A DNA stretch of 64,000 nt from Escherichia phage PP01. A program made the position numbers and the translations under genes. The stretch's first letter is position 1, and every line of letters starts with the position of its first letter. The DNA is taken from sequence record NC_054930.1; one strand, 5' to 3'. The notes under the pieces were generated by a model. It searched no databases. It was not told where the DNA came from and saw only the letters and a program-made list of their open reading frames with translations. Below are positions 2,429 to 61,621 of this stretch, in pieces.

Positions 2429-2458
2429 ATTATACCACATCCTTGTGGTAAAGTAAAC
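2429..2458 (-). promoter_or_regulatory. T4-type early promoter (minus strand)
   Basis: Minus-strand GTTTAC, 18 bp, TATAAT preceded by GTGG; upstream of rIIA.1. Confidence 0.65.
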
Positions 2459-4278
2459 TACTGGCTCATCCATTCTTTGCGAAGGTCAGCATTATCTCCC
2501 ATGAGCATTTCAAAAAGCTCTTTCCAGTTCTCAGGAAGTTTAACAACATCATATACTGGATTTTGAATCATCTCACGATATTCAGATTTTTCCAAAGAGC
2601 CAAGTCCCTTAATATAACGGATGCTATGTTTAGGTAGAGCATCTTTGGCACTCTCATATTCAGCGACTGTATAAAACCATTCTTGTTTTTTACCGACTTG
2701 AGCGATGATTACAGGAGTTTTGACAAAGCGAATTCGTCCTTGCTCAAACAGTTCTGGCCAATTACTAAAAAATCCAAGAAGAGAAGGATAAATGCTTCCT
2801 AAACCATCATGGTCAGCATCGGTCATAATAGCAATATTATGATAATTCAAGTTTTCAGCTTTTTCACCAAGAACTAATCCAGTGATTGCGCAAATATCAA
2901 ATAGTTCTTTGTTTTTAAGCATATCAGCATATGACATACCCCAACTGTTGAGAACTTTACCGCGCAATGGATAACCACCGTGAAGTTCTTTATCACGAAC
3001 ATCAATAAGATATCCGATAGCAGAATCACCCTCAGTCAAGAAAAGAGTAGTGTCAGCATCTTTACCGCAAAGATTCGCTTTGATATGTTTATGAACCTTA
3101 GCTTTAGAAGCCTTTTTAGCTGCTTTAGTTTCTGCTGCTTTTTCTGCTGCCAATTTACGGGCCAAGGCAGCTTCAATAATTGGCATCAGAATTGCTTCAT
3201 TATTTAAAATAGCGCGTGAAATCTTTTTAGCATCAAGTTGAATATGACTACGAATTTCGCCAAATGGAGAAGTCAAACGCTCTTTAGTTTGAGAATCAAA
3301 TCGCATGTTTTTCATATCACGGACAAACATAACGATAGTCAAACATTCTTTGACACGTGCTTTAGTTACATCAATTTTGAACTTACGTTTGATTTGTGGA
3401 ATAAGGTCTTCACAAATATCATCCATAACACAGTCAATGTGATGGCCACCATTCTTAGTGTGAATGTTATTCACGTAAGTTAATTGACGAAATCCATCCG
3501 GTGAACGACCAACCGCAATAGAACAATTTTCTTGTTCTTGAACAATAGCATGTTCATCATATTGGCGTGCATATTTCTTAAAATTACCCTGAACCTTTTT
3601 ACCGTTAAAGGTAAATTGAATATCAGGATAAACTACTGCAAGTGTCTGGAGACGATCCAGTGTAATGTCAAGATAAACTTGAGATAGCTCATTAGTTTCA
3701 AATGACATAAAATCAGGAATGAAAGTAACGCGAGTTCCTTTCCATTTTCCAGGAATAGTTTCCCATGATTTATTTTCCATGCCATTTGAACAACGAACCA
3801 CAATATTATTTTGACCGTCGCCAGTTTCACCGACAAACATCACAGAAAAAATGTTAGTTAAACTAGAACCAACACCGTTCATACCGCCAGTGACGCGTTC
3901 TTTATCATCACCAAAGTTGCCGCCTGCTTTTGGAATAGTCCAGGCGGCAACAGGACCAGGAATTTCTTCACCAGTAGGTGTTTTAACCATCGCTTGTGGA
4001 ATACCGCGACCGTTATCTTCAACTGTTACTTGATTGTTTTTAATAGTAACATTAATTTTATTCGCGAATTTAAACTTAGTACGAATACCTTCATCTACTG
4101 AGTTATCGATAATTTCATCAATAAGCTTAACAAGACCAGGTACATACTGAACACTTTCCCATTTACCAAACAGAAAGCGCTCATGCATTTCATTAGCAGA
4201 AGAACCAATGTACATGCCGCTACGCTTTTTGATATGTTCAATATCGCTCAGAATTTTAATTTCATTCTTAATCATCAC
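2458..4278 (-). CDS. 39: DNA topoisomerase II large subunit (GyrB-like ATPase + Toprim), uninterrupted
   Basis: 606-aa continuous ORF; GHKL ATPase motifs (DNGRGIP), Toprim LTEGDSA; corresponds to T4 gp39 plus gp60 as one gene. Confidence 0.9.
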   Translation of the reverse strand: MMIKNEIKILSDIEHIKKRSGMYIGSSANEMHERFLFGKWESVQYVPGLVKLIDEIIDNSVDEGIRTKFKFANKINVTIKNNQVTVEDNGRGIPQAMVKTPTGEEIPGPVAAWTIPKAGGNFGDDKERVTGGMNGVGSSLTNIFSVMFVGETGDGQNNIVVRCSNGMENKSWETIPGKWKGTRVTFIPDFMSFETNELSQVYLDITLDRLQTLAVVYPDIQFTFNGKKVQGNFKKYARQYDEHAIVQEQENCSIAVGRSPDGFRQLTYVNNIHTKNGGHHIDCVMDDICEDLIPQIKRKFKIDVTKARVKECLTIVMFVRDMKNMRFDSQTKERLTSPFGEIRSHIQLDAKKISRAILNNEAILMPIIEAALARKLAAEKAAETKAAKKASKAKVHKHIKANLCGKDADTTLFLTEGDSAIGYLIDVRDKELHGGYPLRGKVLNSWGMSYADMLKNKELFDICAITGLVLGEKAENLNYHNIAIMTDADHDGLGSIYPSLLGFFSNWPELFEQGRIRFVKTPVIIAQVGKKQEWFYTVAEYESAKDALPKHSIRYIKGLGSLEKSEYREMIQNPVYDVVKLPENWKELFEMLMGDNADLRKEWMSQ

Positions 4279-4327
4279 TTATCCTCGTTTGGTTTCGGGA
4301 ATATTATACTCCGGTAATCATAAAGCT

Positions 4328-4345
4328 AAAGGCCCGAAGGCCTTT
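4328..4345. terminator. palindromic GC hairpin (AAAGGCC-CGAA-GGCCTTT)
   Basis: Perfect stem with CGAA loop between the lipoprotein gene and gene 39; the T-run is better on the plus strand. Confidence 0.4.
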
Positions 4346-4617
4346 TATTTAAAACGGATAGTCGAATCCTTGAAGAATAGACCAGAACATACTGTTCCTT
4401 CTACTTTCTGCCCGGTAGGTCCAATAGCACGAAATCCAGTATGCTGGAAATCATTTTCAGAGCAACCGAACCAGTTGTATCCAGTGATTTCAATATTAGT
4501 AAAACCGCTTGAAGACAAAATTTTGGTTGCATTATCAGCATCAGTACATCCTACTAAAGATACTGCTAATACTAATGCTGCGATAGAACGATTAACATAT
4601 TTCATAATTTCACTCAA
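4345..4617 (-). CDS. putative lipoprotein
   Basis: 90 aa; N-terminal signal peptide with lipobox LVGC. Confidence 0.5.
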   Translation of the reverse strand: MSEIMKYVNRSIAALVLAVSLVGCTDADNATKILSSSGFTNIEITGYNWFGCSENDFQHTGFRAIGPTGQKVEGTVCSGLFFKDSTIRFK

Positions 4618-5810: not shown

Positions 5811-6080
5811 TTAATTGAACAGTGGAGCGATGCGTTTCAGAAGAGTGGCAGCACCTTTGGCGAATTTTACATCATGAAAAACAGTTTCTTCTTCCGTTAC
5901 AACACGAGCTTTAATGTTTTCACAATCCCAATTTTTACGAACAATCTTCAAAAGCTGCAGTAAATCTTTACATTCAGCAATATCGATAACACATCCATGA
6001 GAATCTTCCATTATCGCACGATAACCATAAGCCATACCATAATCGTTGAAAGACTGTTCGATGATAATTAAGTTTTCCAT
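5811..6080 (-). CDS. hypothetical protein
   Basis: ORF track gives 5811-6092 (MENKM start); the ATG at 6080 follows the GGAG Shine-Dalgarno of a repeated start cassette and is the likelier start. Confidence 0.45.
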   Translation of the reverse strand: MENLIIIEQSFNDYGMAYGYRAIMEDSHGCVIDIAECKDLLQLLKIVRKNWDCENIKARVVTEEETVFHDVKFAKGAATLLKRIAPLFN

Positions 6081-6187
6081 TTTATTCTCCAAGTTGTTTT
6101 CTGTATCAGTAGTTGATATTGATATAGTACCATAATCAACTACTGATGTATATAGTTTTATGAAAAAATTTTAAACTTTATGCAAAT

Positions 6188-6607
6188 TTATGCTAAAGCT
6201 GCTTCGCACCATTTTTTAATTTGGAATTCAGGAACTACCATGAACTGGCCTGCAAAAACAATATTGTAGAGCTTGACACCATCTTCTACCCAACGGTCCG
6301 AAATAAAACCAGCGACTTGATTCGTTGTCCATGGAGTTCCATCTGTTGCCGCCGCAATTGTGAATTTATGGTCTTTTACAACTAAAACTGAAGAACAAAG
6401 TTTCCATTTAAATGCGCTTTCTTCTGGCTCAATGAATTGGCTTGAGACATAACCAATGTTACCATCAGCGTCACGAACTTTAACCTCGTTACGACCAAAA
6501 ACTGGATCACTTACAGAAAGAACTTCAACCAGCTTTCCTGCAACTTTAGAACGAGAAGCAACGGATACATATACGTAATCACCAGTAGAGAGATTTACAA
6601 TATTCAT
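6188..6607 (-). CDS. MotB-like paralogue (KOW-like N-terminus)
   Basis: 139 aa; shares RSKxAGxLVEV and C-terminal WxEDGxxLYNxVFxGxF motifs with the next two ORFs. Confidence 0.5.
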   Translation of the reverse strand: MNIVNLSTGDYVYVSVASRSKVAGKLVEVLSVSDPVFGRNEVKVRDADGNIGYVSSQFIEPEESAFKWKLCSSVLVVKDHKFTIAAATDGTPWTTNQVAGFISDRWVEDGVKLYNIVFAGQFMVVPEFQIKKWCEAALA

Positions 6608-6616
6608 AATAATTCC

Positions 6617-7093
6617 TTAAGCTTTACGAGGAGAAGCATAACGAATGATTTCAGATTCTTCAACAACCCGGAAGTCACCTAAAAATACAATATTGTATAG
6701 CTTTTTACCATCTTCAATCCATTGGTCTGTAATGAAGCCACACATCCTATCAGTTTTACTTGGACCAGCGAAATCATCAATATAATCGAATTTTTCAGCA
6801 GTTACAAATTCAACGCCTTTGCACAACGGCCATTTAAATTGTGCATTAGACTTAGTGGATTCAACTTCTTTAACAGAAGCAAAATGAGCGCTAACATGAG
6901 TTTCCAGAAATTTAGGACTTACGTAAGCGTACTGAGTTTCAATTTTTCCAGAACTAGGAATGATTCGAACTTTAACTTCTTTAACACGACCAGTACCATT
7001 AGTACGAAGTCCTACCACTTCAACTAGACGACCTGCAGCTTTAGAACGGGATTTATCAGATACACGAGCAATTTCACCAATATTAATAATCAT
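6617..7093 (-). CDS. motB: MotB-like DNA-binding protein
   Basis: 158 aa, near T4 MotB size and position; KOW-like N-terminal motif; paralogous to neighbours. Confidence 0.45.
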   Translation of the reverse strand: MIINIGEIARVSDKSRSKAAGRLVEVVGLRTNGTGRVKEVKVRIIPSSGKIETQYAYVSPKFLETHVSAHFASVKEVESTKSNAQFKWPLCKGVEFVTAEKFDYIDDFAGPSKTDRMCGFITDQWIEDGKKLYNIVFLGDFRVVEESEIIRYASPRKA

Positions 7094-7137
7094 AGTTATC
7101 TCTCACTTGTTAAAAAGATTTTATACTCCGCGGGACC

Positions 7138-7167
7138 ATTATACTCTGGTCCCAAGAGTTTGTAAAC
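7138..7167 (-). promoter_or_regulatory. early promoter; -10 region embedded in an inverted repeat
   Basis: GTTTAC / TATAAT with 18-bp spacing; -10 lies in the loop of GGGACCA...TGGTCCC. Confidence 0.5.
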
Positions 7168-7169
7168 TA

Positions 7170-7712
7170 TTAATTTAAAATAGCTACCACAGCACTACGA
7201 GGTACTACACTAAAATCACCTGCATGAACAACGTTCAGAAGTTCAACACCATCTTCAACCCACTGGTCTGTTACCCAACCACAGACCGAAATAAATGGGG
7301 TCTTGATAGCTACAGCACGAGTTAGAAGGTCGGTAGGGTCTTGTTCTTCAACTTCTTGGAACAGGATGAACTCTGCTTCATAAACCAGGATTTTCTCCAT
7401 TTTGTTATTGTCTAAACGACGACCGTGGACAATATAAGATTTAGTAAACCATTTACTTTTTTCAAAGTCTTCAACGGTAAATTCGCCTTCGCCAAAAACA
7501 TCAGTCAAAGTTTTATGGCCGGAAATCAAGGCATTAGTTTTAATTTCAGGTTCAACCAGTTTGTAGGTTTTGCCGATTTCAATAGCAGTAGTCATAGTAG
7601 GTTCCTTAATTTCCAGTGGTTTAACAGGGCATACATAAGTGCTTACAACATCAAAATCAATCAGTTTAGCTACCGGATTTGGTGTGTATTCAGGATTATA
7701 ATTAAATTTCAT
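7170..7712 (-). CDS. MotB C-terminal-domain paralogue
   Basis: 180 aa; C-terminal QWVEDGVELLNVVHAGDFSVV matches the family motif. Confidence 0.45.
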   Translation of the reverse strand: MKFNYNPEYTPNPVAKLIDFDVVSTYVCPVKPLEIKEPTMTTAIEIGKTYKLVEPEIKTNALISGHKTLTDVFGEGEFTVEDFEKSKWFTKSYIVHGRRLDNNKMEKILVYEAEFILFQEVEEQDPTDLLTRAVAIKTPFISVCGWVTDQWVEDGVELLNVVHAGDFSVVPRSAVVAILN

Positions 7713-18796: not shown

Positions 18797-18982
18797 TCAT
18801 TCTCCTCCTCCTCCTTCATGTTGATGAACATATTCTTTTTCAAGTCTAGAGCACAAGTTTTCATATTCAACTAATAAAAATGAATCAAGTGCGTTATTTC
18901 TATGCTGACACCGTTCTTGTAAAGAATCCATCTCTGAACGTTGTTCTTGTGTTAATAATTGATAACCTGATACTTTAGACAT
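18797..18982 (-). CDS. small hypothetical protein
   Basis: ORF track 18797-18994 (MENKM); second Met is the likelier start. Confidence 0.4.
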   Translation of the reverse strand: MSKVSGYQLLTQEQRSEMDSLQERCQHRNNALDSFLLVEYENLCSRLEKEYVHQHEGGGGE

Positions 18983-19046
18983 TTTGTTCTCCATTTACTC
19001 GTTTGTTTTGATAGGTCTATAATAACATGTTTAAAATAAAAGTAAA

Positions 19047-19301
19047 CTATTTTATTTCCTCAAGTTCGTTAATCAATAAAAGTTCTCTGACGCTAAAAAC
19101 AAAGAAAAATGTGTTCCCATCAACCAGAGCATGACCGCTAATAGAACACCCTCTGCGGAATTTAGAAACTTCACAATCTAGAACTGTAAAGGGTTTTAAT
19201 CCTATGACTTTAGCTGTGCGTCTATTCAGTTCACAACCACTCGCGAATTTTTCCAAATCTTCTTCTGATTTAAACTGATATTCTCTATTAACTAGCATCA
19301 T
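19047..19301 (-). CDS. small hypothetical protein (61.4 region)
   Basis: 84-aa ORF downstream of early promoter at 19333-19362. Confidence 0.45.
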   Translation of the reverse strand: MMLVNREYQFKSEEDLEKFASGCELNRRTAKVIGLKPFTVLDCEVSKFRRGCSISGHALVDGNTFFFVFSVRELLLINELEEIK

Positions 19302-25265: not shown

Positions 25266-25502
25266 TCAAATACAAGTAGTAATTACTCCAGTAGTGCTTA
25301 TGCAGGTATTACCCATTTGCACACCTAAAGATCCATTTGTATTCACATGAAGATTATCATCAATTTTAACTGATATTTTACCATTAGTGTGAATAACGGT
25401 GCTAGATTTAATCACAGGTTGAGTATCATTTTCAACACTAACAAATGGAACTGCTACTAATGCAACTAAACAAACTGCTAAGCATCCCATAACAATTTTC
25501 AT
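25266..25502 (-). CDS. small secreted/membrane protein
   Basis: ORF track 25266-25514 (MENKM); hydrophobic N-terminus. Confidence 0.45.
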   Translation of the reverse strand: MKIVMGCLAVCLVALVAVPFVSVENDTQPVIKSSTVIHTNGKISVKIDDNLHVNTNGSLGVQMGNTCISTTGVITTCI

Positions 25503-25539
25503 TTTATTCTCCAAATCTGTATCAGTAGTTGATAGTTGT

Positions 25540-25569
25540 ATAGTACCACAGAAGAACAGTCTTGTAAAC
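25540..25569 (-). promoter_or_regulatory. early promoter (repeat cassette)
   Basis: GTTTAC, 18 bp, TACTAT preceded by GTGG; about 45 nt near-identical to 52368-52407. Confidence 0.5.
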
Positions 25570-25650
25570 AGTTTTGTGAAAATTTTTTAGGGAATTCTAA
25601 AGGTCCAGAATCATCTGTTTTTCATAAGTATAGATTTATATTACTTGTAT

Positions 25651-25672
25651 GAAAAAGGGACCCGGAGGTCCC
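25651..25672 (-). terminator. rho-independent terminator after gene 43
   Basis: GGGACC-CGGA-GGTCCC stem plus minus-strand T-run. Confidence 0.6.
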
Positions 25673-25685
25673 TAGATTTATTCTA

Positions 25686-28437: not shown

Positions 28438-28458
28438 AATAAGGGGCCGAAGCCCCCT
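28438..28458 (-). terminator. terminator hairpin after regA
   Basis: GGGGC-CGAA-GCCCC stem with TTATTT on the minus strand. Confidence 0.5.
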
Positions 28459-28460
28459 GC

Positions 28461-28829
28461 TTAATTACCAATCGTATATTTAGGAACGAGTTTCCATTCA
28501 TGTTTTTGTTTAAAAGAAATAACTCGGAAGTTATTAGTTAAATCTTTCATAAAAGTTCTTTGACCAGGAACGATTTCAATCAGTCCCCAATCTTCTAATA
28601 GCCATGCAATCGAATCACGACGAACTTCATCTTCTTCTGTCATTTCAACTTGACGACCATCCATACGAAGCATTTCTTTAAAATGAACGATATAGTATAG
28701 TCCTTTTTTCTGAAGAATATGACAGGACTGATACAGAACTTTATCTTTATTATTAGCAATTCCCATACGAGTCAAAGTTTCTTTTACTTTCAGAAAATCT
28801 TCAGGTTTTTTAAGAGTAATTTCAATCAT
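28461..28829 (-). CDS. regA: translational repressor RegA
   Basis: 122 aa as in T4 RegA; position upstream of 43. Confidence 0.85.
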   Translation of the reverse strand: MIEITLKKPEDFLKVKETLTRMGIANNKDKVLYQSCHILQKKGLYYIVHFKEMLRMDGRQVEMTEEDEVRRDSIAWLLEDWGLIEIVPGQRTFMKDLTNNFRVISFKQKHEWKLVPKYTIGN

Positions 28830-30384: not shown

Positions 30385-30403
30385 TATAAAGGGCCGAAGC
30401 CCT
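30385..30403 (-). terminator. terminator hairpin after gene 45
   Basis: GGGC-CGAA-GCCC stem followed by TTTATAATTT on the minus strand. Confidence 0.5.
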
Positions 30404-30406
30404 CTA

Positions 30407-31093
30407 TTAAAAATCGTGGGTAGAATCAGCTTCAAGAGCTACTACATAATTCGCATGTTCACCTTCAAATTTAGCAGCGCCTTGTTTACCTTTTGCCCAG
30501 AGAAGAAGTTTATAATTTCCTGGTTGCATTTTCATATTTGCCATATTGATAATGAAATTAAATGTATTTTCACCATCATAATCACCAAGAGTCAAAGAAT
30601 ATTTAACACGGGTCAAAGCAGAATCTTCTACTTTGTTAAAACCGTTAATTACAATTTTACCTTCTTTTACTGTGATAGCAATTGTATCAATCTGCAGACC
30701 GCGAGATACACGCAACAGCTGTTGAAGGTCTTCAGCTTTAATTTCAGTAACAACAGATGCTACCGGGAATGGAATTGGTTTATTAGGAGCAACTACTGTA
30801 CTCGGATCAGCTGCTGGCCAAAAAATTGTTGAACGGGCATCAGCAATTTTAATATTACCATCTTCTGACTGGGAAATTTCTGCATCATCATTAACGAGAG
30901 ACAGAATACCAAGAAAACCGTTCAAATCGTAAATCGCTACATCAAAATCAATAGTGTCAGAAATATTTGCTTCTGCATAAGTTGTACCATTAACCGCGCG
31001 AGTCATAATAAATTGACCGGATTTAAGCATAATACCAGAGTTAATAGTAGCGAAATTTTTGAGCAGAGCAGTAGTATCTTTAGACAGTTTCAT
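30407..31093 (-). CDS. 45: sliding clamp
   Basis: 228 aa as in T4 gp45. Confidence 0.9.
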   Translation of the reverse strand: MKLSKDTTALLKNFATINSGIMLKSGQFIMTRAVNGTTYAEANISDTIDFDVAIYDLNGFLGILSLVNDDAEISQSEDGNIKIADARSTIFWPAADPSTVVAPNKPIPFPVASVVTEIKAEDLQQLLRVSRGLQIDTIAITVKEGKIVINGFNKVEDSALTRVKYSLTLGDYDGENTFNFIINMANMKMQPGNYKLLLWAKGKQGAAKFEGEHANYVVALEADSTHDF

Positions 31094-35966: not shown

Positions 35967-35984
35967 TAAAGGGCCGAAGCCCTT
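35967..35984. terminator. palindromic GC hairpin between alpha-gt and gene 47
   Basis: AAAGGGC-CGAA-GCCCTTT; same architecture as 4328-4345. Confidence 0.45.
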
Positions 35985-37186
35985 TATTTTGTAATAATGT
36001 CAAACTGTTCTTTAAAGCAGAAGCTTGAATCTTGATGCTGATACAAAAATTCATAAGCTTTTTCGCGTTCACGGTCATAAAGAGCTCGGTCAGATGACAG
36101 TTCTTTAATACGCTCAAATGTTGATTCCATGTCATTTTCATCAAACCAAACGATACCGCTATCATGAGAAATTAACGGAGTATTATCAACACGGAATTTT
36201 AAATTTTCGCCAGTAGATTTCCAAAATACCGGAATTGTTCCACACGCACCAAGCTCGAGATGAGTATATTCTAAAGAACGCTGTAGATATTTTTTATCTA
36301 ATTTACTCAGCTGATAACCAAATCCGGATTTACTCATGCGTTCAAGCATTTCGCTATTTACATAACGGTCGAGAATTTGCGTTGGCAAATTAGGAGCAAT
36401 TTTAATTTGGTCTACTTGATGAAGACGATAATACTCGTATGGAATTCCTTTTTCTTTAATAGGAATGAACGCTGGAGAACGTTCCAGACCTTCCATAACA
36501 GTACTTAGTCCTGCAGGTTTAAGATGTTTTTCGTGAAAATCAAACATCTGATAAAAGCCTTTCCATGTAGTAGTACGACCAATCCAACGGTTGATATTCA
36601 TGTTAATTTCAGAAACATCTTTCCAGTAAGTTGATCGAACCTTCGCAATATCCATAGGAGGCTGAAAGTTATATACGGTCGGTGCTTCTTCAATATCATC
36701 AAACAAAGAAACTGTTTCTGGATACCATTCTTTCATTAAAACTTTATTAAAATCACCATTATCAGAATGGCTAAAAATAACATCAGCTCGACGAACAGTT
36801 TCTTCTAATCCCAAATTTCGGCGCAAAGAAAGAGAAGAATGGTCATGTTGATAAACTACAACACGAACCGAAGGTTTAATGTTATCAATAATTTTTTTAT
36901 AGTTATTAATCGTGTCTTCTTCAACTGAAGTAGCAGGAACTGAATTGATAATTAGAATATCACAATCATTTACCAACTTAAGTGTTTTATCGTATTCTTT
37001 TGCCAATAAAACCGGAATTGAAAATGACTTATAATCATGTGCGCAATTACGAGTAAATGATTTATCTTTAGCATAAACCAAAGTTACTTCATGACCATTT
37101 TTAATAAACCAATCACGTTGCTCAAGAGAAAATTTAGTTACACCACAACCTTCAAGACCTCGAGCCATAAAAATGCATACTTTCAT
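35984..37186 (-). CDS. a-gt: alpha-glucosyltransferase
   Basis: 400 aa as in T4 alpha-gt; position after gene 47. Confidence 0.85.
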   Translation of the reverse strand: MKVCIFMARGLEGCGVTKFSLEQRDWFIKNGHEVTLVYAKDKSFTRNCAHDYKSFSIPVLLAKEYDKTLKLVNDCDILIINSVPATSVEEDTINNYKKIIDNIKPSVRVVVYQHDHSSLSLRRNLGLEETVRRADVIFSHSDNGDFNKVLMKEWYPETVSLFDDIEEAPTVYNFQPPMDIAKVRSTYWKDVSEINMNINRWIGRTTTWKGFYQMFDFHEKHLKPAGLSTVMEGLERSPAFIPIKEKGIPYEYYRLHQVDQIKIAPNLPTQILDRYVNSEMLERMSKSGFGYQLSKLDKKYLQRSLEYTHLELGACGTIPVFWKSTGENLKFRVDNTPLISHDSGIVWFDENDMESTFERIKELSSDRALYDREREKAYEFLYQHQDSSFCFKEQFDIITK

Positions 37187-39604: not shown

Positions 39605-39621
39605 AAAAAGGGCCGAAGCCC
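39605..39621 (-). terminator. rho-independent terminator
   Basis: GGGC-CGAA-GCCC stem followed by TTTTT on the minus strand. Confidence 0.6.
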
Positions 39622-39822
39622 TTAGCTAAACTGTTTGGCACCCTTCCAGCCTTCGTACATCATTGCGACTGACAATGACAAAGCTCCTTCGCATGCTGCA
39701 TACTTATTATTCCAGAACCAATTTAGAAAAACTTCATCCTCAATACCATTGTGTTTCATGTTCTGGAAAAATTTGGCGCGTTCTTCACGAAGCTTTTGCG
39801 ATAACATAGATTCAGGATTCAT
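39622..39822 (-). CDS. small hypothetical protein
   Basis: 66-aa ORF followed by terminator. Confidence 0.45.
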   Translation of the reverse strand: MNPESMLSQKLREERAKFFQNMKHNGIEDEVFLNWFWNNKYAACEGALSLSVAMMYEGWKGAKQFS

Positions 39823-40460: not shown

Positions 40461-40490
40461 ATAATACCACGGTTTGAACTTGTTGTAAAC
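40461..40490 (-). promoter_or_regulatory. early promoter
   Basis: GTTTAC, 18 bp, TATTAT with GTGG. Confidence 0.5.
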
Positions 40491-40569
40491 AACTTTGTGA
40501 AAAATATTTTAGGGAATGACAAGAAGGGAACGATAGCTTAGAATGGTAATATACAGAATGCGAGAAAGA

Positions 40570-42826: not shown

Positions 42827-44636
42827 GTTTTACTCGTTTTACCATTTCTTTCATTTTACCTAAATTCCATGGAACAACGCTAGGAGTTCCAAGATAACCG
42901 CATGTTCTTCTTATGGTGTTCATCTTTTTAGGATCAGTTTCTCCACAAATAGAACAAACAAATCCGTTTTCAGTAGGAGTCATTTCATGGGTACTTCCAC
43001 ACGTAAAACATTTATCTACCGGCATGTTAACACCAAAATAATCTAAATGTTGTGCAGCATAATCCCATACGGCCTCAAGACCCTTTAAGTTATTTTTCAT
43101 ATCAGGAAGTTCAACATAAGAAATGTGACCGCCTGTCGCAATGAAATGATATGGCGCTTCACGAGAAATCTTTTCAAACGGAGTAATATTTTCTTCTACT
43201 GAAACATGGAAACTGTTAGTGTACCAGCCTTTATCGGTAACATCTTTTACGCTTCCATATTTTTCTGTATCGAGTTTACAGAAGCGATAACAAAGGTTTT
43301 CAGCAGGAGTAGAATACAAGCTAAAAGCAAAACCGGTTCTTTCAGTCCACTGCTTAAGACGAGCATTCATTTTAGTCAAAATTTCCTGTCCAATATCACG
43401 ACCGACAAGAATATTCAATTCGTGAATACCAATGTATCCTAGGGACACTGAACTTCTACCGTTTTTAAATAACTCAATTATGTCGTCATCAGGTTTAAGA
43501 CGAACCCCGAATGCACCTTCTTGGTAAAGAATAGGAGCAACAGTCGCTTTAACTCCTTTTAAGGAACTAATTCTACACATCAAAGCTTCAAAACACAAAT
43601 CCATACGTTCATTGAATAATTCAACAAATTTCTGTTCATTGAACTGTGTTCCAATATAAGAATCTAACGCGATGCGAGGAAGATTCAGTGTTACAACACC
43701 AAGATTATTACGTCCATCAAGAATTTCATTACCAGTCGAATCTTTCCATACGCTCAAGAAACTACGGCAACCCATTGGAGAAACAGGAACAGATGAACCA
43801 GTGATAGCTTTATTGTTCTTAGCTGAAATAATATCAGGATACATCCTTTTGCTTGCACACTCTAGAGCAAGCTGCTTAATATCATAGTTCGGATCGTCTT
43901 TATAAAGATTAACACCTTCTTCAACGAACATAACAAGTTTAGGGAAAATAGGAGTTATCCCATCACGACCAAGACCTTTAATACGATTTTTCAGAATTGC
44001 TTTCTGAATCATTCGTTCAGTCCAGTCAGTTCCCGTACCAAATGTAATTGTTACAAAAGGCGTTTGTCCGTTTGAACTAAAGAGAGTATTTACTTCATAT
44101 TCATAAGCTTGGAACGCATCGTATACGTCTTTTTCTGTTTTAGATTGGGCATAATTCAACGCGTCAGCGATTTGCCATTTTTCTGCATCCTCAATATGTT
44201 TTGCATAGGTGCGTTTAACATAAGGAGAAAGGACTTTATCTACATTCGCAAAAGTCGTTCCACCGTATTGATGGGAAGCAACCTGTGCAGTAATTTGTGC
44301 CATAATTGCAGTAGCAACACCGATTGATTTAGGAGTTTCAATCTGTGCATTACCGAGCTTAAATCCGTTCTCAAGCATTCCTTTTAAATCTACTAAACAG
44401 CAATTAGTAAATGGAAGAGCAGGGGAATAATCAATATCATGGAAATGAATAATTCCGCTTTCATGCGCTTTCATAATAAAAGACGGGACCATATTTTTGG
44501 CAATGTGTTTAGACACAATACCAGCCATAAGGTCCCGTTGAGTTGGAAAAACACGAGAATCTTTATTAGCATTCTCGTTTAAAAGGTCTTTATTAGTTTT
44601 ATGAATCAATCCTTCAATTTCTTTTTCAATTGTCAT
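42819..44636 (-). CDS. nrdD: anaerobic ribonucleoside-triphosphate reductase (glycyl radical enzyme), intron-less
   Basis: 605 aa continuous ORF; C-terminal glycyl radical motif RTCGYLG; Zn ribbon CFTCGS...CSICG. Confidence 0.92.
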   Translation of the reverse strand: MTIEKEIEGLIHKTNKDLLNENANKDSRVFPTQRDLMAGIVSKHIAKNMVPSFIMKAHESGIIHFHDIDYSPALPFTNCCLVDLKGMLENGFKLGNAQIETPKSIGVATAIMAQITAQVASHQYGGTTFANVDKVLSPYVKRTYAKHIEDAEKWQIADALNYAQSKTEKDVYDAFQAYEYEVNTLFSSNGQTPFVTITFGTGTDWTERMIQKAILKNRIKGLGRDGITPIFPKLVMFVEEGVNLYKDDPNYDIKQLALECASKRMYPDIISAKNNKAITGSSVPVSPMGCRSFLSVWKDSTGNEILDGRNNLGVVTLNLPRIALDSYIGTQFNEQKFVELFNERMDLCFEALMCRISSLKGVKATVAPILYQEGAFGVRLKPDDDIIELFKNGRSSVSLGYIGIHELNILVGRDIGQEILTKMNARLKQWTERTGFAFSLYSTPAENLCYRFCKLDTEKYGSVKDVTDKGWYTNSFHVSVEENITPFEKISREAPYHFIATGGHISYVELPDMKNNLKGLEAVWDYAAQHLDYFGVNMPVDKCFTCGSTHEMTPTENGFVCSICGETDPKKMNTIRRTCGYLGTPSVVPWNLGKMKEMVKRVKHA

Positions 44637-49407: not shown

Positions 49408-49437
49408 ATTATACCACATCCTTGTGGCAAAGTAAAC
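49408..49437 (-). promoter_or_regulatory. early promoter
   Basis: GTTTAC, 18 bp, TATAAT with GTGG; near-identical to the 2429-2458 promoter. Confidence 0.6.
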
Positions 49438-51831: not shown

Positions 51832-52359
51832 TTATGCGAGTGCCGTCTTTAACCGTTCTTCAAACTTCCGAAGAGTATTTTGGCGTTCAGCTCTTTGCTT
51901 TTTGTAAGTTTCAATACGCTCTGAAATGAGAGTGTATCGTTCATTTACTGATTCTTTCATAAAATCAGGAATTTCACGAGAAGCTTTAATCTCGTCAAAT
52001 TTATCAATAACAGCTTGCTCTTCAGCAATTAAGTTATCATACATTAAAATATCTTTCTTGATGAACTCAATATCTTCTTGAGTTACACGAGATAATTTAG
52101 ATGCTTTATCCTTTTTGTACTGTTCGTTAGTATCACGAGACCAATGTAATGTACGATTTTTATTCGTATTCTTGTAAATTTCTACAATACCAATCTCATC
52201 AATAATAACGATCCAATTCCAGCGGGATTTGTAAATTTGTCCTCCATCAACAGCGATTTCACCTCCGATTGAGATGTCGTTAAAGAACTTGCTTTGTGCT
52301 TCAGATTTAAATTTACCATCGTTGTAATTTACTAAGTTGAAAATATCTTTAGCGTTCAT
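51832..52359 (-). CDS. hypothetical protein with C-terminal coiled coil
   Basis: 175-aa ORF downstream of promoter 52378-52407. Confidence 0.5.
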   Translation of the reverse strand: MNAKDIFNLVNYNDGKFKSEAQSKFFNDISIGGEIAVDGGQIYKSRWNWIVIIDEIGIVEIYKNTNKNRTLHWSRDTNEQYKKDKASKLSRVTQEDIEFIKKDILMYDNLIAEEQAVIDKFDEIKASREIPDFMKESVNERYTLISERIETYKKQRAERQNTLRKFEERLKTALA

Positions 52360-52377
52360 TTTCTGTTCCTCCGTAGT

Positions 52378-52407
52378 TGATAGTTGTATAGTACCACAGA
52401 GGAACAG
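52378..52407 (-). promoter_or_regulatory. early promoter (repeat cassette)
   Basis: GTTTAC, 18 bp, TACTAT. Confidence 0.5.
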
Positions 52408-52419
52408 TCTTGTAAACCA

Positions 52420-52734
52420 CTAAAAGAAACTTCTTTCACAATTTTTTCCACTGAACCATGCGCTCACTGCTTTCTTAGTCTCAGGAGCAGTGTTATCCAT
52501 AAACCATTCAAAGGCAGCCTTTTTATGATTCTGGAGGGCTTCTCGGGCTTTAATCTGCTCACGGTCTATTAACACTAACATGTGAGCCTTTCTTGTCACC
52601 ATGGGCTTCTTATGATTTTTTGAATACTCCCAGTCATTTGTCCATCGCATTGTTGTTGCGAACTGAAATACTGCTTCTTTAATTTTAGTTTCGTAAATTT
52701 CATGAGCCTTTGAGTATAACATCACTACCTCCAT
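52420..52734 (-). CDS. hypothetical protein
   Basis: 104-aa ORF. Confidence 0.45.
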   Translation of the reverse strand: MEVVMLYSKAHEIYETKIKEAVFQFATTMRWTNDWEYSKNHKKPMVTRKAHMLVLIDREQIKAREALQNHKKAAFEWFMDNTAPETKKAVSAWFSGKNCERSFF

Positions 52735-52823: not shown

Positions 52824-53792
52824 TTATTTCAGAAGAGTAACCTCAGCAATTTCTTCCCAACCGTTTTTGTCGGTCATAATAAAGTCAGCAAGATAAAGAG
52901 CAGTACGCAGTGAAACATTGCGTAAACGATTAACATTAACTTTCATCCATGATAATGCTTTATAAGTTTCTTCATCAGAAAGACCGCGCTTTTGCATCAT
53001 GTCAGTTGAAAGAATAACATCTTCAACCCTGACCATAATTTCTTCATTAGTGTGAACACCCAAATCTAAATAAACCGAGCGGGACACTAATGCTTGTAAG
53101 TGTGGAGCAAGTTTAGTACCACGGTCTAATTCGCGGTCAATGTCAACGTTTGTGATAAAAACAATCGTTCCTTTAAATTCAAACTCACGGTCAATGCCTT
53201 TTTCTTCTAAGTAAGAAGATGCAGTGCTCCAGCAGACTTTACGGGTCTCTCCAGTGTCCAGAGCGGCTTTTAGAAGATTAAGAATGTCCATATCAGAGAA
53301 AACATCCACATCATCAATCAAAAGGACAGAATTCTCTTCACGATTATTCCAAAGCTGCTCATAAAGACCAATACCAGAGATTTTACCATTAATGCTTTTA
53401 TATTCAATGTATCCGTTATCATTTGCTTTATTTAAAGCTTTATCTAAAGAATACGTTTTACCAATACCTGCTGCGCCAGAGATAATTAATGAACGAATAT
53501 TTCCATTAATAATACCATTCGTCATCATTCCCATAACATTAAATCTTTTATTAATGCGGGTTTTCATATCTTCATACGATTCTTTAACTTCTTCAACTTT
53601 TACACCATCATATGAAATATCTGATTTGTAAACCCAAACACCGCGACGTTTACCGTCAATTTCAACAAAAACTTTACCATCTCCTTGTGCATCTACCGGA
53701 GCATTATCTGGGAACCATTCGCCTAAGAGCTCAAAAGTTCCAGAGATTTCTTTACCGAAGTAGATACCCTTATTGATAGTTACAGTTTTCAT
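52824..53792 (-). CDS. P-loop NTPase (AAA-like)
   Basis: ORF track 52824-53804 (MENKM); Walker A GAAGIGKTYS, Walker B VLLIDDVD. Confidence 0.6.
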   Translation of the reverse strand: MKTVTINKGIYFGKEISGTFELLGEWFPDNAPVDAQGDGKVFVEIDGKRRGVWVYKSDISYDGVKVEEVKESYEDMKTRINKRFNVMGMMTNGIINGNIRSLIISGAAGIGKTYSLDKALNKANDNGYIEYKSINGKISGIGLYEQLWNNREENSVLLIDDVDVFSDMDILNLLKAALDTGETRKVCWSTASSYLEEKGIDREFEFKGTIVFITNVDIDRELDRGTKLAPHLQALVSRSVYLDLGVHTNEEIMVRVEDVILSTDMMQKRGLSDEETYKALSWMKVNVNRLRNVSLRTALYLADFIMTDKNGWEEIAEVTLLK

Positions 53793-53826
53793 TTTATTCT
53801 CCAAATCTGTATCAGTTGATAGTTGT

Positions 53827-53856
53827 ATAGTACCATAAAGCTTTATGCTTGTAAAC
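53827..53856 (-). promoter_or_regulatory. early promoter (repeat cassette)
   Basis: GTTTAC, 18 bp, TACTAT; follows terminator 53881-53903. Confidence 0.5.
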
Positions 53857-53880
53857 CGTTTTGTGAAAAATTTTTGAAAT

Positions 53881-53903
53881 AAAAAGGGAGCCCGAAGGCT
53901 CCC
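53881..53903 (-). terminator. rho-independent terminator
   Basis: GGGAGCC-CGAA-GGCTCCC stem followed by TTTTT on the minus strand. Confidence 0.7.
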
Positions 53904-53906
53904 TTA

Positions 53907-57398: not shown

Positions 57399-57428
57399 AT
57401 AGTACCACGGCTCAAACGAAAAGTAAAC
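57399..57428 (-). promoter_or_regulatory. early promoter
   Basis: GTTTAC, 18 bp, TACTAT; follows terminator 57438-57460. Confidence 0.5.
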
Positions 57429-61102: not shown

Positions 61103-61564
61103 TCATTGAGTTTTAATTACTGCTTTAGAAGCCTTTCCTGGTAAACGACGACTGTTAATAATTGCCATCCTGCATTGAAGCGACGGGTCTTTGAACTTCG
61201 CATTAGGTTTACAAACTGTAAATCCAAGCCAAAGATTTCCATCTGTGATTTCTAAACGCCCAGGACGATATTCAACCCCATCAATAAAATCCTCGTCAAT
61301 GTCAGGACGCGGAGGCATACTCAGGAATTCATTAACTTCTAAAACATGGTCTTTTATTTTATGGAATAATTCAAAAACATATGTCTCATCAATCTCCCGT
61401 TGAATTGCACGATCAAGAAGATGTTGAGAATATTTTAGATGAAACGATGAGACCCCTGCTGCTTTTGATGCCTCACGAATCTCATTGTTAATTTGACGAA
61501 ACTCCGACTCAAAGTGACGACGGAGCTTATTTCGACGGATAAAAACTTCTATGTTGATAGTCAT
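61103..61564 (-). CDS. regB: RegB endoribonuclease
   Basis: 153 aa as in T4 RegB; basic; early promoter at 61592-61621. Confidence 0.65.
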   Translation of the reverse strand: MTINIEVFIRRNKLRRHFESEFRQINNEIREASKAAGVSSFHLKYSQHLLDRAIQREIDETYVFELFHKIKDHVLEVNEFLSMPPRPDIDEDFIDGVEYRPGRLEITDGNLWLGFTVCKPNAKFKDPSLQCRMAIINSRRLPGKASKAVIKTQ

Positions 61565-61591
61565 GTTATTCTCCTCTTAACTGATAGAAAA

Positions 61592-61621
61592 ATTATACCA
61601 CAGTCAAGAGGAAAAGTAAAC
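61592..61621 (-). promoter_or_regulatory. early promoter upstream of regB
   Basis: GTTTAC, 18 bp, TATAAT with TGG. Confidence 0.6.

Follow-up and report, generated by a model that had tools for sequence, protein, structure and literature searches.

Recurrent early promoter cassettes in phage PP01

The near-identical cassettes that recur in the early region of Escherichia phage PP01 very probably serve as early promoters of a T4-like phage, dependent on sigma-70, in the form of the composite units published as promoter-early stem-loop (PeSL) cassettes and with a RegB-type start module. A T4 early promoter, or PeSL cassette, whose ribosome-binding site is of the RegB type is a feature that is already known, PeSL cassettes have previously been described as places of accessory-gene gain and loss, and the finding leaves current understanding unchanged. 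Our analysis covered a 64,000-nt window (the whole stretch of DNA studied) of the PP01 genome (NC_054930.1), which spans the early region from rIIA to e of a T4-like coliphage (Tequatrovirus). The gene order from rIIA to the lysozyme gene e is collinear with that of T4 (NC_000866) and of phage vB_EcoM_ASO78A (hereafter ASO78A), and a 3-kb query around the copy in the gene 43/imm region, taking in the DNA polymerase gene 43, imm.1 and imm, had 97-98% identity to many Tequatrovirus genomes. The window is AT-rich, with a G+C content of 34%, and a crude gene call placed 123 of its 128 ORFs on the minus strand. Since nearly all the genes lie on that strand, the strings first quoted in an earlier note on this DNA need to be reverse-complemented for the cassettes to be read; all the features described below are on the minus strand. 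That note had placed a cassette of approximately 45-80 nt at about 6077-6180, 25497-25575, 52362-52410 and 53789-53860, and we found all four copies at these positions. They are referred to here as cassettes A (6.1 kb), B (25.5 kb), C (52.4 kb) and D (53.8 kb).

We then compared the window with itself. With a word size of 20, five exact direct repeats of at least 20 nt were detected, against none in 20 first-order Markov, composition-matched simulations, confirming that the repeats are not random; with a word size of 16 nt, there were 19 exact repeats for a simulated mean of 2.2. Four of the five repeats of at least 20 nt joined cassettes B, C and D, namely B/D at 25496/53786 (31 nt, the longest), B/C at 25525/52373 (28 nt), B/D at 25527/53814 (22 nt) and C/D at 52375/53814 (22 nt), while the fifth (2429/49408) corresponded to another pair of the same promoter kind. 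Cassettes A and B had a 19-nt repeat in common (6100/25516). The copies at 25.5 and 52.4 kb, previously described as almost identical, agreed at 44 of 45 positions (25525-25569 versus 52373-52417). Chance matches would be conceivable in a window of such AT-rich DNA, where short two-copy repeat families are common, but their probability is negligible given the excess over the simulations at both word sizes. Moreover, the copies all lie on the same strand, occupy the same place relative to the start codon and have been kept in hundreds of related genomes.

The copies form a mosaic and do not correspond to a single uniform cassette. The spacers between the -35 and -10 elements of B and C are alike at 16 of 17 positions, whereas B and D have the UP region and the leader in common, including 31 consecutive bases that run through the leader, the Shine-Dalgarno sequence and the first codons. 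Because spacer sequences are otherwise unrelated across the window's ~19 promoters, the sequence common to B and C and to B and D reflects descent or exchange and not promoter function alone.

Anatomy of the cassettes

The early promoter consensus was drawn from the ASO78A annotation notes and from two publications (PMC2988021; PMC4122927), according to the first of which T4 early promoters are 'uber' UP/-35/TGn/-10 promoters in which further positions are conserved. The PP01 cassettes have in common with T4 early promoters an A/T-rich UP region, a -35 element GTTTAC(A/T), a 17-nt spacing and a TGn plus TAYWAT -10 element, as well as the direction of early transcription and a location before prereplicative genes. 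Cassettes B, C and D read TTTACA, 17 nt, TACTAT and cassette A reads TATACA, 17 nt, TACTAT, with TGG directly before TACTAT in all four copies (extended -10). An A/T-rich stretch lies upstream of the promoter in A, B and D, and GGAG is found 7 nt before the ATG in these three copies, with GGAGG in C. Nothing essential distinguishes the cassettes from T4 early promoters, the degenerate -35 of copy A aside, but A to D share more (spacer, leader, Shine-Dalgarno sequence, first codons) than the promoter consensus requires. The shared promoter and Shine-Dalgarno/ATG modules proposed in the earlier note are thus those of T4 early promoter architecture, and orthologues of B, C and D are annotated as promoters. 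Promoter activity and start sites in PP01 are predicted from sequence and orthology, with starts ~7 nt downstream of the -10 boxes, near 6117, 25533, 52381 and 53820: the UP element, the -35 GTTTACA, the 17-nt spacer and the TGG-TACTAT would recruit the unmodified host RNA polymerase right after infection.

Cassette B (25500..25592) precedes a 78-aa ORF. Its A/T-rich UP region (AAAAAATTTTCACAAAAC, ~25570-25592) is followed by the -35 TTTACA at 25568-25563, with a G at 25569, then by the 17-nt spacer and by an extended -10 made of TGG (25548-25546) and TACTAT (25545-25540). Downstream of the -10 come ACAACT, a leader of ~30 nt (ATCAACTACTGATACAGATTT) and GGAGAATAAA-ATG, with a predicted transcription start near 25533, the Shine-Dalgarno GGAG at 25512-25509 and the ATG at 25502-25500. 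The stem-loop part is an intrinsic terminator hairpin after gene 43 (25656..25673; GGGACC-UCCG-GGUCCC and a U run), with a folding energy of -13.9 kcal/mol (z -2.6). In ASO78A, the orthologue of B is annotated as 'T4 early promoter GTTTAC(N14)gtggTAttaT' and has a terminator upstream, the counterpart of the PP01 hairpin being annotated as a rho-independent terminator. The product of the first gene of the unit (25266..25502) has 78 aa and a hydrophobic N-terminus (MKIVMGCLAVCLVALVAVPFV...); it belongs to PHROG 4189 and has no assigned function.

Cassette D (53790..53878) precedes the nrdC.10 homologue, and its T4 orthologue is annotated 'early promoter 54.4' (U76612). It consists of an A/T-rich UP region (AAAAATTTTTCACAAAAC), the -35 TTTACA at 53855-53850, a spacer that holds the palindrome CATAAAGCTTTATG, the -10 TACTAT at 53832-53827 and a leader, ending with the module GGAGAATAAAA at 53802-53792 and the ATG at 53792-53790. 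Its stem-loop part is an intrinsic terminator located after the nrdC.11 homologue (53884..53905; AAGGGAGCC-UUCG-GGCUCCCUU and a U run). The fold of this terminator (-20.8 kcal/mol, z -5.7) is stronger than that of the B hairpin, and it is an annotated terminator in T4 (U76612). The nrdC.10 homologue itself (52824..53792) has 322 aa and contains a P-loop NTPase-like region.

Cassette A (6078..6175) precedes an 89-aa ORF upstream of cef. After an A/T-rich upstream region (AAAATTTTTTCATAAAAC), it has a degenerate, weak -35 (TATACA, 6152-6147), a 17-nt spacer and a -10 TACTAT at 6129-6124 with TGG before it, followed by GGAGAATAAAA at 6090-6080 and the ATG at 6080-6078. A 13-bp perfect inverted repeat surrounds the -10 (6147-6135 and 6117-6105; -20.2 kcal/mol, z -6.0). 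Only this inverted repeat was seen at cassette A, where no terminator-like site was found, and no promoter annotation was found for its orthologues. The first gene (5811..6080, 89 aa) belongs to PHROG 3720, with function not assigned. Cassette C (52357..52417) precedes the nrdC.8 homologue, and its T4 orthologue carries -35 and -10 annotations (U76612). The -35 TTTACA (52416-52411) comes directly after the nrdC.9 stop codon (52420-52422), and it is followed by the -10 TACTAT at 52393-52388, the GGAGG Shine-Dalgarno sequence and the ATG at 52359-52357. As the stop codon abuts the -35, cassette C has no upstream terminator or stem-loop; the sequence upstream of the -35 belongs to the 3' end of the nrdC.9 coding region, with a lower A/T content than in the other copies.

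The family is larger than the four copies first listed. Approximately 19 GTTTAC-N17-TAnnnT sites were found in the window, all on the minus strand and upstream of genes, and a 121-nt query taken from cassette B matched 7-10 places per Tequatrovirus genome, for 4218 places in 544 records. One family member (40461..40509), with a -10 TATTAT, has a UP region (TTTTTCACAAAGTTGTTTACA) that resembles those of B and D (repeat families D1 and D11). A predicted early promoter at 57399..57428 has GGTACTATACAAC in common with A to D and a terminator-like hairpin just upstream, and another at 18980..19047 carries a second recurring leader type (CTATCAAAACAAACGAGTAAATGGAGAACAAAATG). The predicted early promoter at 2429..2458, whose partner promoter lies at 49408-49437, bears the fifth exact repeat of at least 20 nt (repeat family D4).

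RegB-type start module

The module GGAGAATAAAA of cassettes A, B and D is an exact match to GG*AGRAYARAA, the consensus of strong intergenic sites of the RegB endoribonuclease, which together with ribosomal protein S1 cuts early mRNAs within Shine-Dalgarno sequences (reviewed in PMC3014915). GGAGRAYARAA has four matches in the window for 0.33 expected, each of them within a Shine-Dalgarno sequence a short way downstream of an early promoter; the fourth perfect match (18982-18992) belongs to the promoter with the second leader type. As with the RegB/S1 sites of T4 early mRNAs, the modules of A, B and D lie in the Shine-Dalgarno sequences of early genes and in an unstructured context, whereas copy C (GGAGGAACAGA) is off the consensus at one position. 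Cleavage at the PP01 sites is predicted: RegB would cut the A, B and D early mRNAs in the Shine-Dalgarno sequence, causing shut-off a few minutes later. We infer that the conserved TTGGAGAATAAAATG may have been retained for two roles, efficient ribosome binding and shut-off. A regB homologue is located just downstream of the promoter at 61621, as deduced from collinearity with the regB of ASO78A.

Four ORFs had been reported to start with MENKM, and this common start was attributed to the shared Shine-Dalgarno/ATG module and not to a domain. The explanation holds, as the MENKM readings come from an upstream TTG, but the count does not: the reading exists for three ORFs (5811-6092, 25266-25514 and 52824-53804), and not for the 52.4-kb copy, in which the Shine-Dalgarno sequence differs from those of the other copies (GGAGGAACAGAAAATG) and the ORF starts with MNAKD. 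The real start of nrdC.10 is the ATG at 53792, and the MENKM start listed at 53804 is a TTG artefact. In the annotation, each MENKM start should give way to the ATG downstream of it.

PeSL architecture and exchange of accessory genes

Arbiol et al. (2010; PMC2839356) and Comeau, Arbiol and Krisch (2014; PMC4122927) gave the composite unit the name PeSL. For RB49 and phi1, they set up reporter assays of promoter and terminator activity with representative PeSLs, the stem-loops being called effective terminators in their abstract. In the 2014 paper, the PeSLs of the PST/T4 pair have the consensus TTTACW-N17-TAYWAT, with a Shine-Dalgarno sequence and ATG at the 3' end, a stem-loop upstream and a location near indels, and copies that lack the stem-loop or a canonical terminator are named degraded or 'half' PeSLs (PMC4122927). 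The PP01 cassettes likewise bring together a stem-loop terminator, an AT-rich region, a sigma-70-like promoter, a Shine-Dalgarno sequence and an ATG, the consensus fits B, C and D, and the cassettes lie in accessory-gene regions tied to insertions, deletions and replacements. The upstream stem-loop is present in B and D but not in C, which has none, nor in A, which has no canonical terminator, and in A, C and several other PP01 promoters an inverted repeat encloses the -10 rather than sitting upstream. With its poor -35 and lack of a canonical terminator in the case of A, and without a stem-loop in the case of C, not every copy is a complete PeSL. Mini-circles were demonstrated in RB49 and phi1, whereas the PP01 cassettes are known here from their sequence.

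Gene-sized insertions, deletions and replacements were observed in related phages, with junctions inside or beside cassettes B and D. At locus B, the 78-aa ORF is kept in 318 of 516 records, the others having no ORF or a different one. In T4, the same cassette is found upstream of imm.1 and is fused directly to this gene, the 78-aa ORF being absent and the junction lying in ATGAAAAT. In phage Ac3, an unrelated 83-aa ORF replaces the 78-aa ORF behind the same promoter, and the leader turns to the C type exactly at ATCAACTAC. At locus D, insertions of ~260, 480, 625 or 1100 nt were found in 19 of 60 sampled records, making at least four insertion classes. In phage phiD1, one ORF is inserted directly after ACAACTATCAA, with a degenerate second promoter behind it; at the same point, ASO78A carries two ORFs (one DUF4031) and a second promoter. 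G4500 carries both insertions, resulting in three tandem promoters. A 30-nt direct repeat lies on both sides of the inserted ADP-ribosylase-like gene of G4500, and the CTATCAAAACAAACGAGTAAATGGAGAACAAAATG leader type is also present at insertion junctions in phiD1, ASO78A and G4500. Searches of the cargo ORFs against Pfam and PHROGs returned only families without known function, DUF4031 and one ADP-ribosylase-like match. At locus C, no variation was seen among the related records compared. Downstream of cassette A, the 89-aa ORF is cut to a stub in T4 and ASO78A by a deletion that starts immediately behind the ATG; this deletion lies inside the gene, and a few bases of microhomology suffice for it, without the need for a second cassette.

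The exact homology between copies amounts to 22-31 nt. According to the discussion section of PMC2839356, T4 recombination needs only small homology patches (<50 bp), which makes repeats of this length plausible substrates. Across the window, the excess of alignment breakpoints in cassettes was modest, with 4 of 42 breakpoints in the comparison with T4 (1.7 expected, 2.4-fold, P 0.09) and 4 of 22 in that with ASO78A (0.9 expected, 4.5-fold, P 0.011), two of the four hits being common to both comparisons. We also searched for a deletion between C and D, which lie 1.44 kb apart and would give the one plausible local product, with AGTTGATAGTTGTATAGTACCA as the expected crossover sequence, by screening 50,697 phage records with the predicted 592-nt junction; it was contiguous in none of the 616 records with partial matches. 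The interval of ~27 kb from B to C/D holds genes 43, 62, 44, 45, 46, 47 and 55. It is established from T4 genetics that a 27-kb deletion between B and C/D would be lethal and that an equally long duplication is too large for the T4 headful. Owing to these essential genes, a deletion between B and C/D cannot yield viable phage, and long-range products of B and C/D could occur only as rare dead-end molecules. The proposal that the repeats are substrates for rearrangement is upheld, as relatives have gene-sized insertions and deletions whose junctions fall in cassettes B and D, but it does not extend to viable products of ~27 kb. The promoter shuffling that had also been put forward holds as well. 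The rearrangements seen, and those that survive, are local, with modules inserted, lost or replaced at single cassettes.

The complete layout, as found in B and D, has four parts, C being without the hairpin and A having a degenerate -35. In the mechanism that we favor, the terminator hairpin, as the first part, would insulate the unit from upstream transcription; the promoter comes second, followed by an unstructured leader of ~30 nt and by the GGAG, which is separated from the ATG by 7 nt. The sequence that the copies have in common over and above the promoter consensus reflects shared descent and exchange between cassettes. As direct repeats with their own promoter and terminator, the cassettes are usable as portable linkers, and the homologous recombination system of the phage would use them in this way, so that accessory modules could be gained, lost or swapped at cassettes without upsetting the expression of neighbors.

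Convergent constraint alone could be put forward instead, with each site separately optimised to the promoter and RegB consensus and with no role for descent, exchange or rearrangement. The conserved positions that T4 early promoters have in addition to the -35, TGn and -10 elements (PMC2988021), the fit of GGAGAATAAAA to a functional consensus and the absence of a C x D recombinant among the 616 records are compatible with this explanation. We nevertheless regard it as improbable, since the spacer is not conserved over 19 promoters and yet is common to B and C at 16 of 17 positions, and since B and D are identical over 31 consecutive bases. The same promoter with a C-type leader at locus B of Ac3, with its switch at ATCAACTAC, and the 30-nt repeat around the inserted gene of G4500 also argue for exchange. 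Nor are the cassettes likely to be the termini or relics of a mobile element (transposon, MITE or homing endonuclease target) that moves autonomously by means of its own enzyme. Gene modules do come and go at cassettes, T4-like genomes are rich in homing endonucleases, with annotated seg and mob genes, and a possible helper protein is raised by the PeSL authors (PMC2839356). However, the inserted modules are small ORFs, DUF4031 and an ADP-ribosylase-like gene, with no transposase or endonuclease among them, neither terminal inverted repeats nor target-site duplications were seen, and the junctions lie in sequence common to the flanking cassettes, as homologous recombination predicts. Together these points make a mobile element very improbable.

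Under the favored reading as T4-type early promoters in PeSL form, the cassettes delimit early transcription units and allow prediction of the genes silenced by RegB. In addition, they flag spots of accessory-gene gain and loss in Tequatrovirus, near imm and imm.1 (superinfection immunity) and in the nrdC.8-nrdC.11 block. On the practical side, such repeats can mislead assemblers or give low-level junction reads.

Hairpins around the promoters

The leaders of A to D fold no better than shuffled sequences (0 to -3.4 kcal/mol, z 0 to +1.5), and an Rfam scan of the whole window gave no family match. Both results argue against the transcribed part being a structured regulatory RNA (riboswitch-like leader or small RNA), a possibility suggested by the 31 leader nucleotides identical in B and D and by the strong hairpins in cassettes A and C. 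These hairpins, moreover, need bases 5' of the predicted transcription start and so exist only in read-through RNA; we thus hold a structured RNA to be highly unlikely. Perfect stems of at least 6 bp around the -10 were found in 8 of 19 promoters for a shuffle mean of 3.8 (maximum of 9 in 300), making a hairpin around the -10 weak as a general feature of the class. Such hairpins are individually strong at A, C, 19362, 19850 and 61621.

In cassette C, a 15-bp hairpin (52363..52407) is formed by pairing of the spacer (52407-52393) with the Shine-Dalgarno region of nrdC.8 (52377-52363), with a folding energy of -27 kcal/mol (z -5.2); none of 200 shuffled sequences folded as well. This hairpin forms only in RNA read through from upstream, transcripts from the local promoter being without its 5' arm. 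The regB promoter has the same design, with a 15-bp stem between spacer and Shine-Dalgarno sequence (-23 kcal/mol) that is likewise confined to read-through RNA. In T4 genes e, soc, 49 and I-TevI, a hairpin hides the ribosome-binding site in read-through RNA and a promoter inside the hairpin gives rise to a translatable RNA. The stems of C and of the regB promoter resemble these T4 hairpins in pairing sequence upstream of the predicted transcription start with the Shine-Dalgarno sequence; the promoters are late or middle in the T4 cases, whereas here the promoter is early and the effect is predicted.

This hairpin design suggests, as a prediction only, that the halves of a cassette may set whether read-through RNA is translated. 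More specifically, the cassette might consist of two exchangeable halves that recombine at ATCAACTAC, a swap that would set both the translation of read-through RNA and the speed of RegB silencing for the first gene; we put this forward tentatively and consider it rather doubtful. In the promoter half, the spacer may act as an anti-Shine-Dalgarno sequence, and the leader/Shine-Dalgarno half may either pair with the spacer (C type) or leave a strong RegB site open (B and D type). If true, this two-half arrangement would be a refinement inside known T4 biology and no new kind of system. Cassette B has nearly the spacer of C but a D-type leader, and it has no hairpin. At locus B of Ac3, where the promoter is joined to a C-type leader, the leader pairs back more weakly (-13.5 kcal/mol, z -1.8).

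Hairpins associated with early promoters and intergenic regions

In predicted folds of read-through RNA, the spacer of an early promoter base-pairs with the Shine-Dalgarno sequence of the downstream nrdC.8 or regB homologue. The hairpin at the nrdC.8 homologue, within the repeated promoter and leader unit at 52.4 kb (cassette C; 52363-52407, minus strand), has a 15-bp stem with a folding energy of -27 kcal/mol (z -5.2), and that at the promoter of the regB homologue (61564-61621, minus strand) also has a 15-bp stem (-23 kcal/mol, z -4.6). The 5' arm of either hairpin would be missing from RNA initiated locally, and these structures may restrict translation of both genes to locally initiated mRNA.

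Several early promoters have their -10 box inside a perfect inverted repeat of 7 to 13 bp. At cassette A, the copy of the repeated unit at 6.1 kb, the inverted repeat (6105-6147, minus strand) forms a 13-bp stem (-20.2 kcal/mol, z -6) whose left arm repeats the shared leader ATCAACTACTGAT in inverted orientation. Inverted repeats also surround the -10 box of the early promoters at 7167, 19362 and 19850. As a class, they were found at 8 of the 19 promoters against a shuffle mean of 3.8, a weak excess. Several sites of this kind are annotated as terminators overlapping promoters in the collinear relative ASO78A.

Intergenic hairpins of the GGGCC-GAAG-GCCC type (repeat family D5) recur at 4327-4348, 28440-28461, 30387-30408, 35967-35988 and 39606-39627, and rho-independent terminators are annotated in ASO78A at the orthologous positions. 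GGGC/GCCC motifs have been tied to T4 deletion endpoints by Mosig et al., as noted in PMC2839356.

Leader reuse and variable gene content

A second recurrent leader family, CTATCAAAACAAAYG(A/T)GTAAAT(T)GGAGA-ACAAAATG, is represented in the window at 18980-19047 (minus strand). Leaders of this type were found 3' of early promoters that are unrelated, and also where insertions join the sequence before the nrdC.10 homologue (locus D) in phages phiD1, G4500 and ASO78A. Judging from these sequences, the reused modules seem to include leaders as well as promoters.

A 78-aa ORF (25266-25502, minus strand; PHROG 4189) with a hydrophobic, signal-peptide-like N-terminus lies immediately upstream of the homologues of the superinfection immunity genes imm.1 and imm. 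Of 516 Tequatrovirus records, 318 contain this ORF; T4 lacks it, and the related phage Ac3 carries an unrelated 83-aa ORF in its place. Several T4 insertions are missing from PP01 (compared at window positions 2806-2858 and 44098-44101) and explain most large gaps in the T4 alignment. In the topoisomerase gene the absent feature is the gene 60/mobA split, and in nrdD it is the intron with I-TevII; the regions of segA, mobB, mobC and mobD are also lacking. The motB-side region aligns poorly with both T4 and ASO78A, except for a conserved island surrounding the 7167 promoter. This region holds three ORFs in a row (139, 158 and 180 aa; 6188-7712, minus strand), whose C-termini share the motif G-F-I-[ST]-D-[RQ]-W-[VI]-E-D-G-x-x-L-Y/L-N-[IV]-V.
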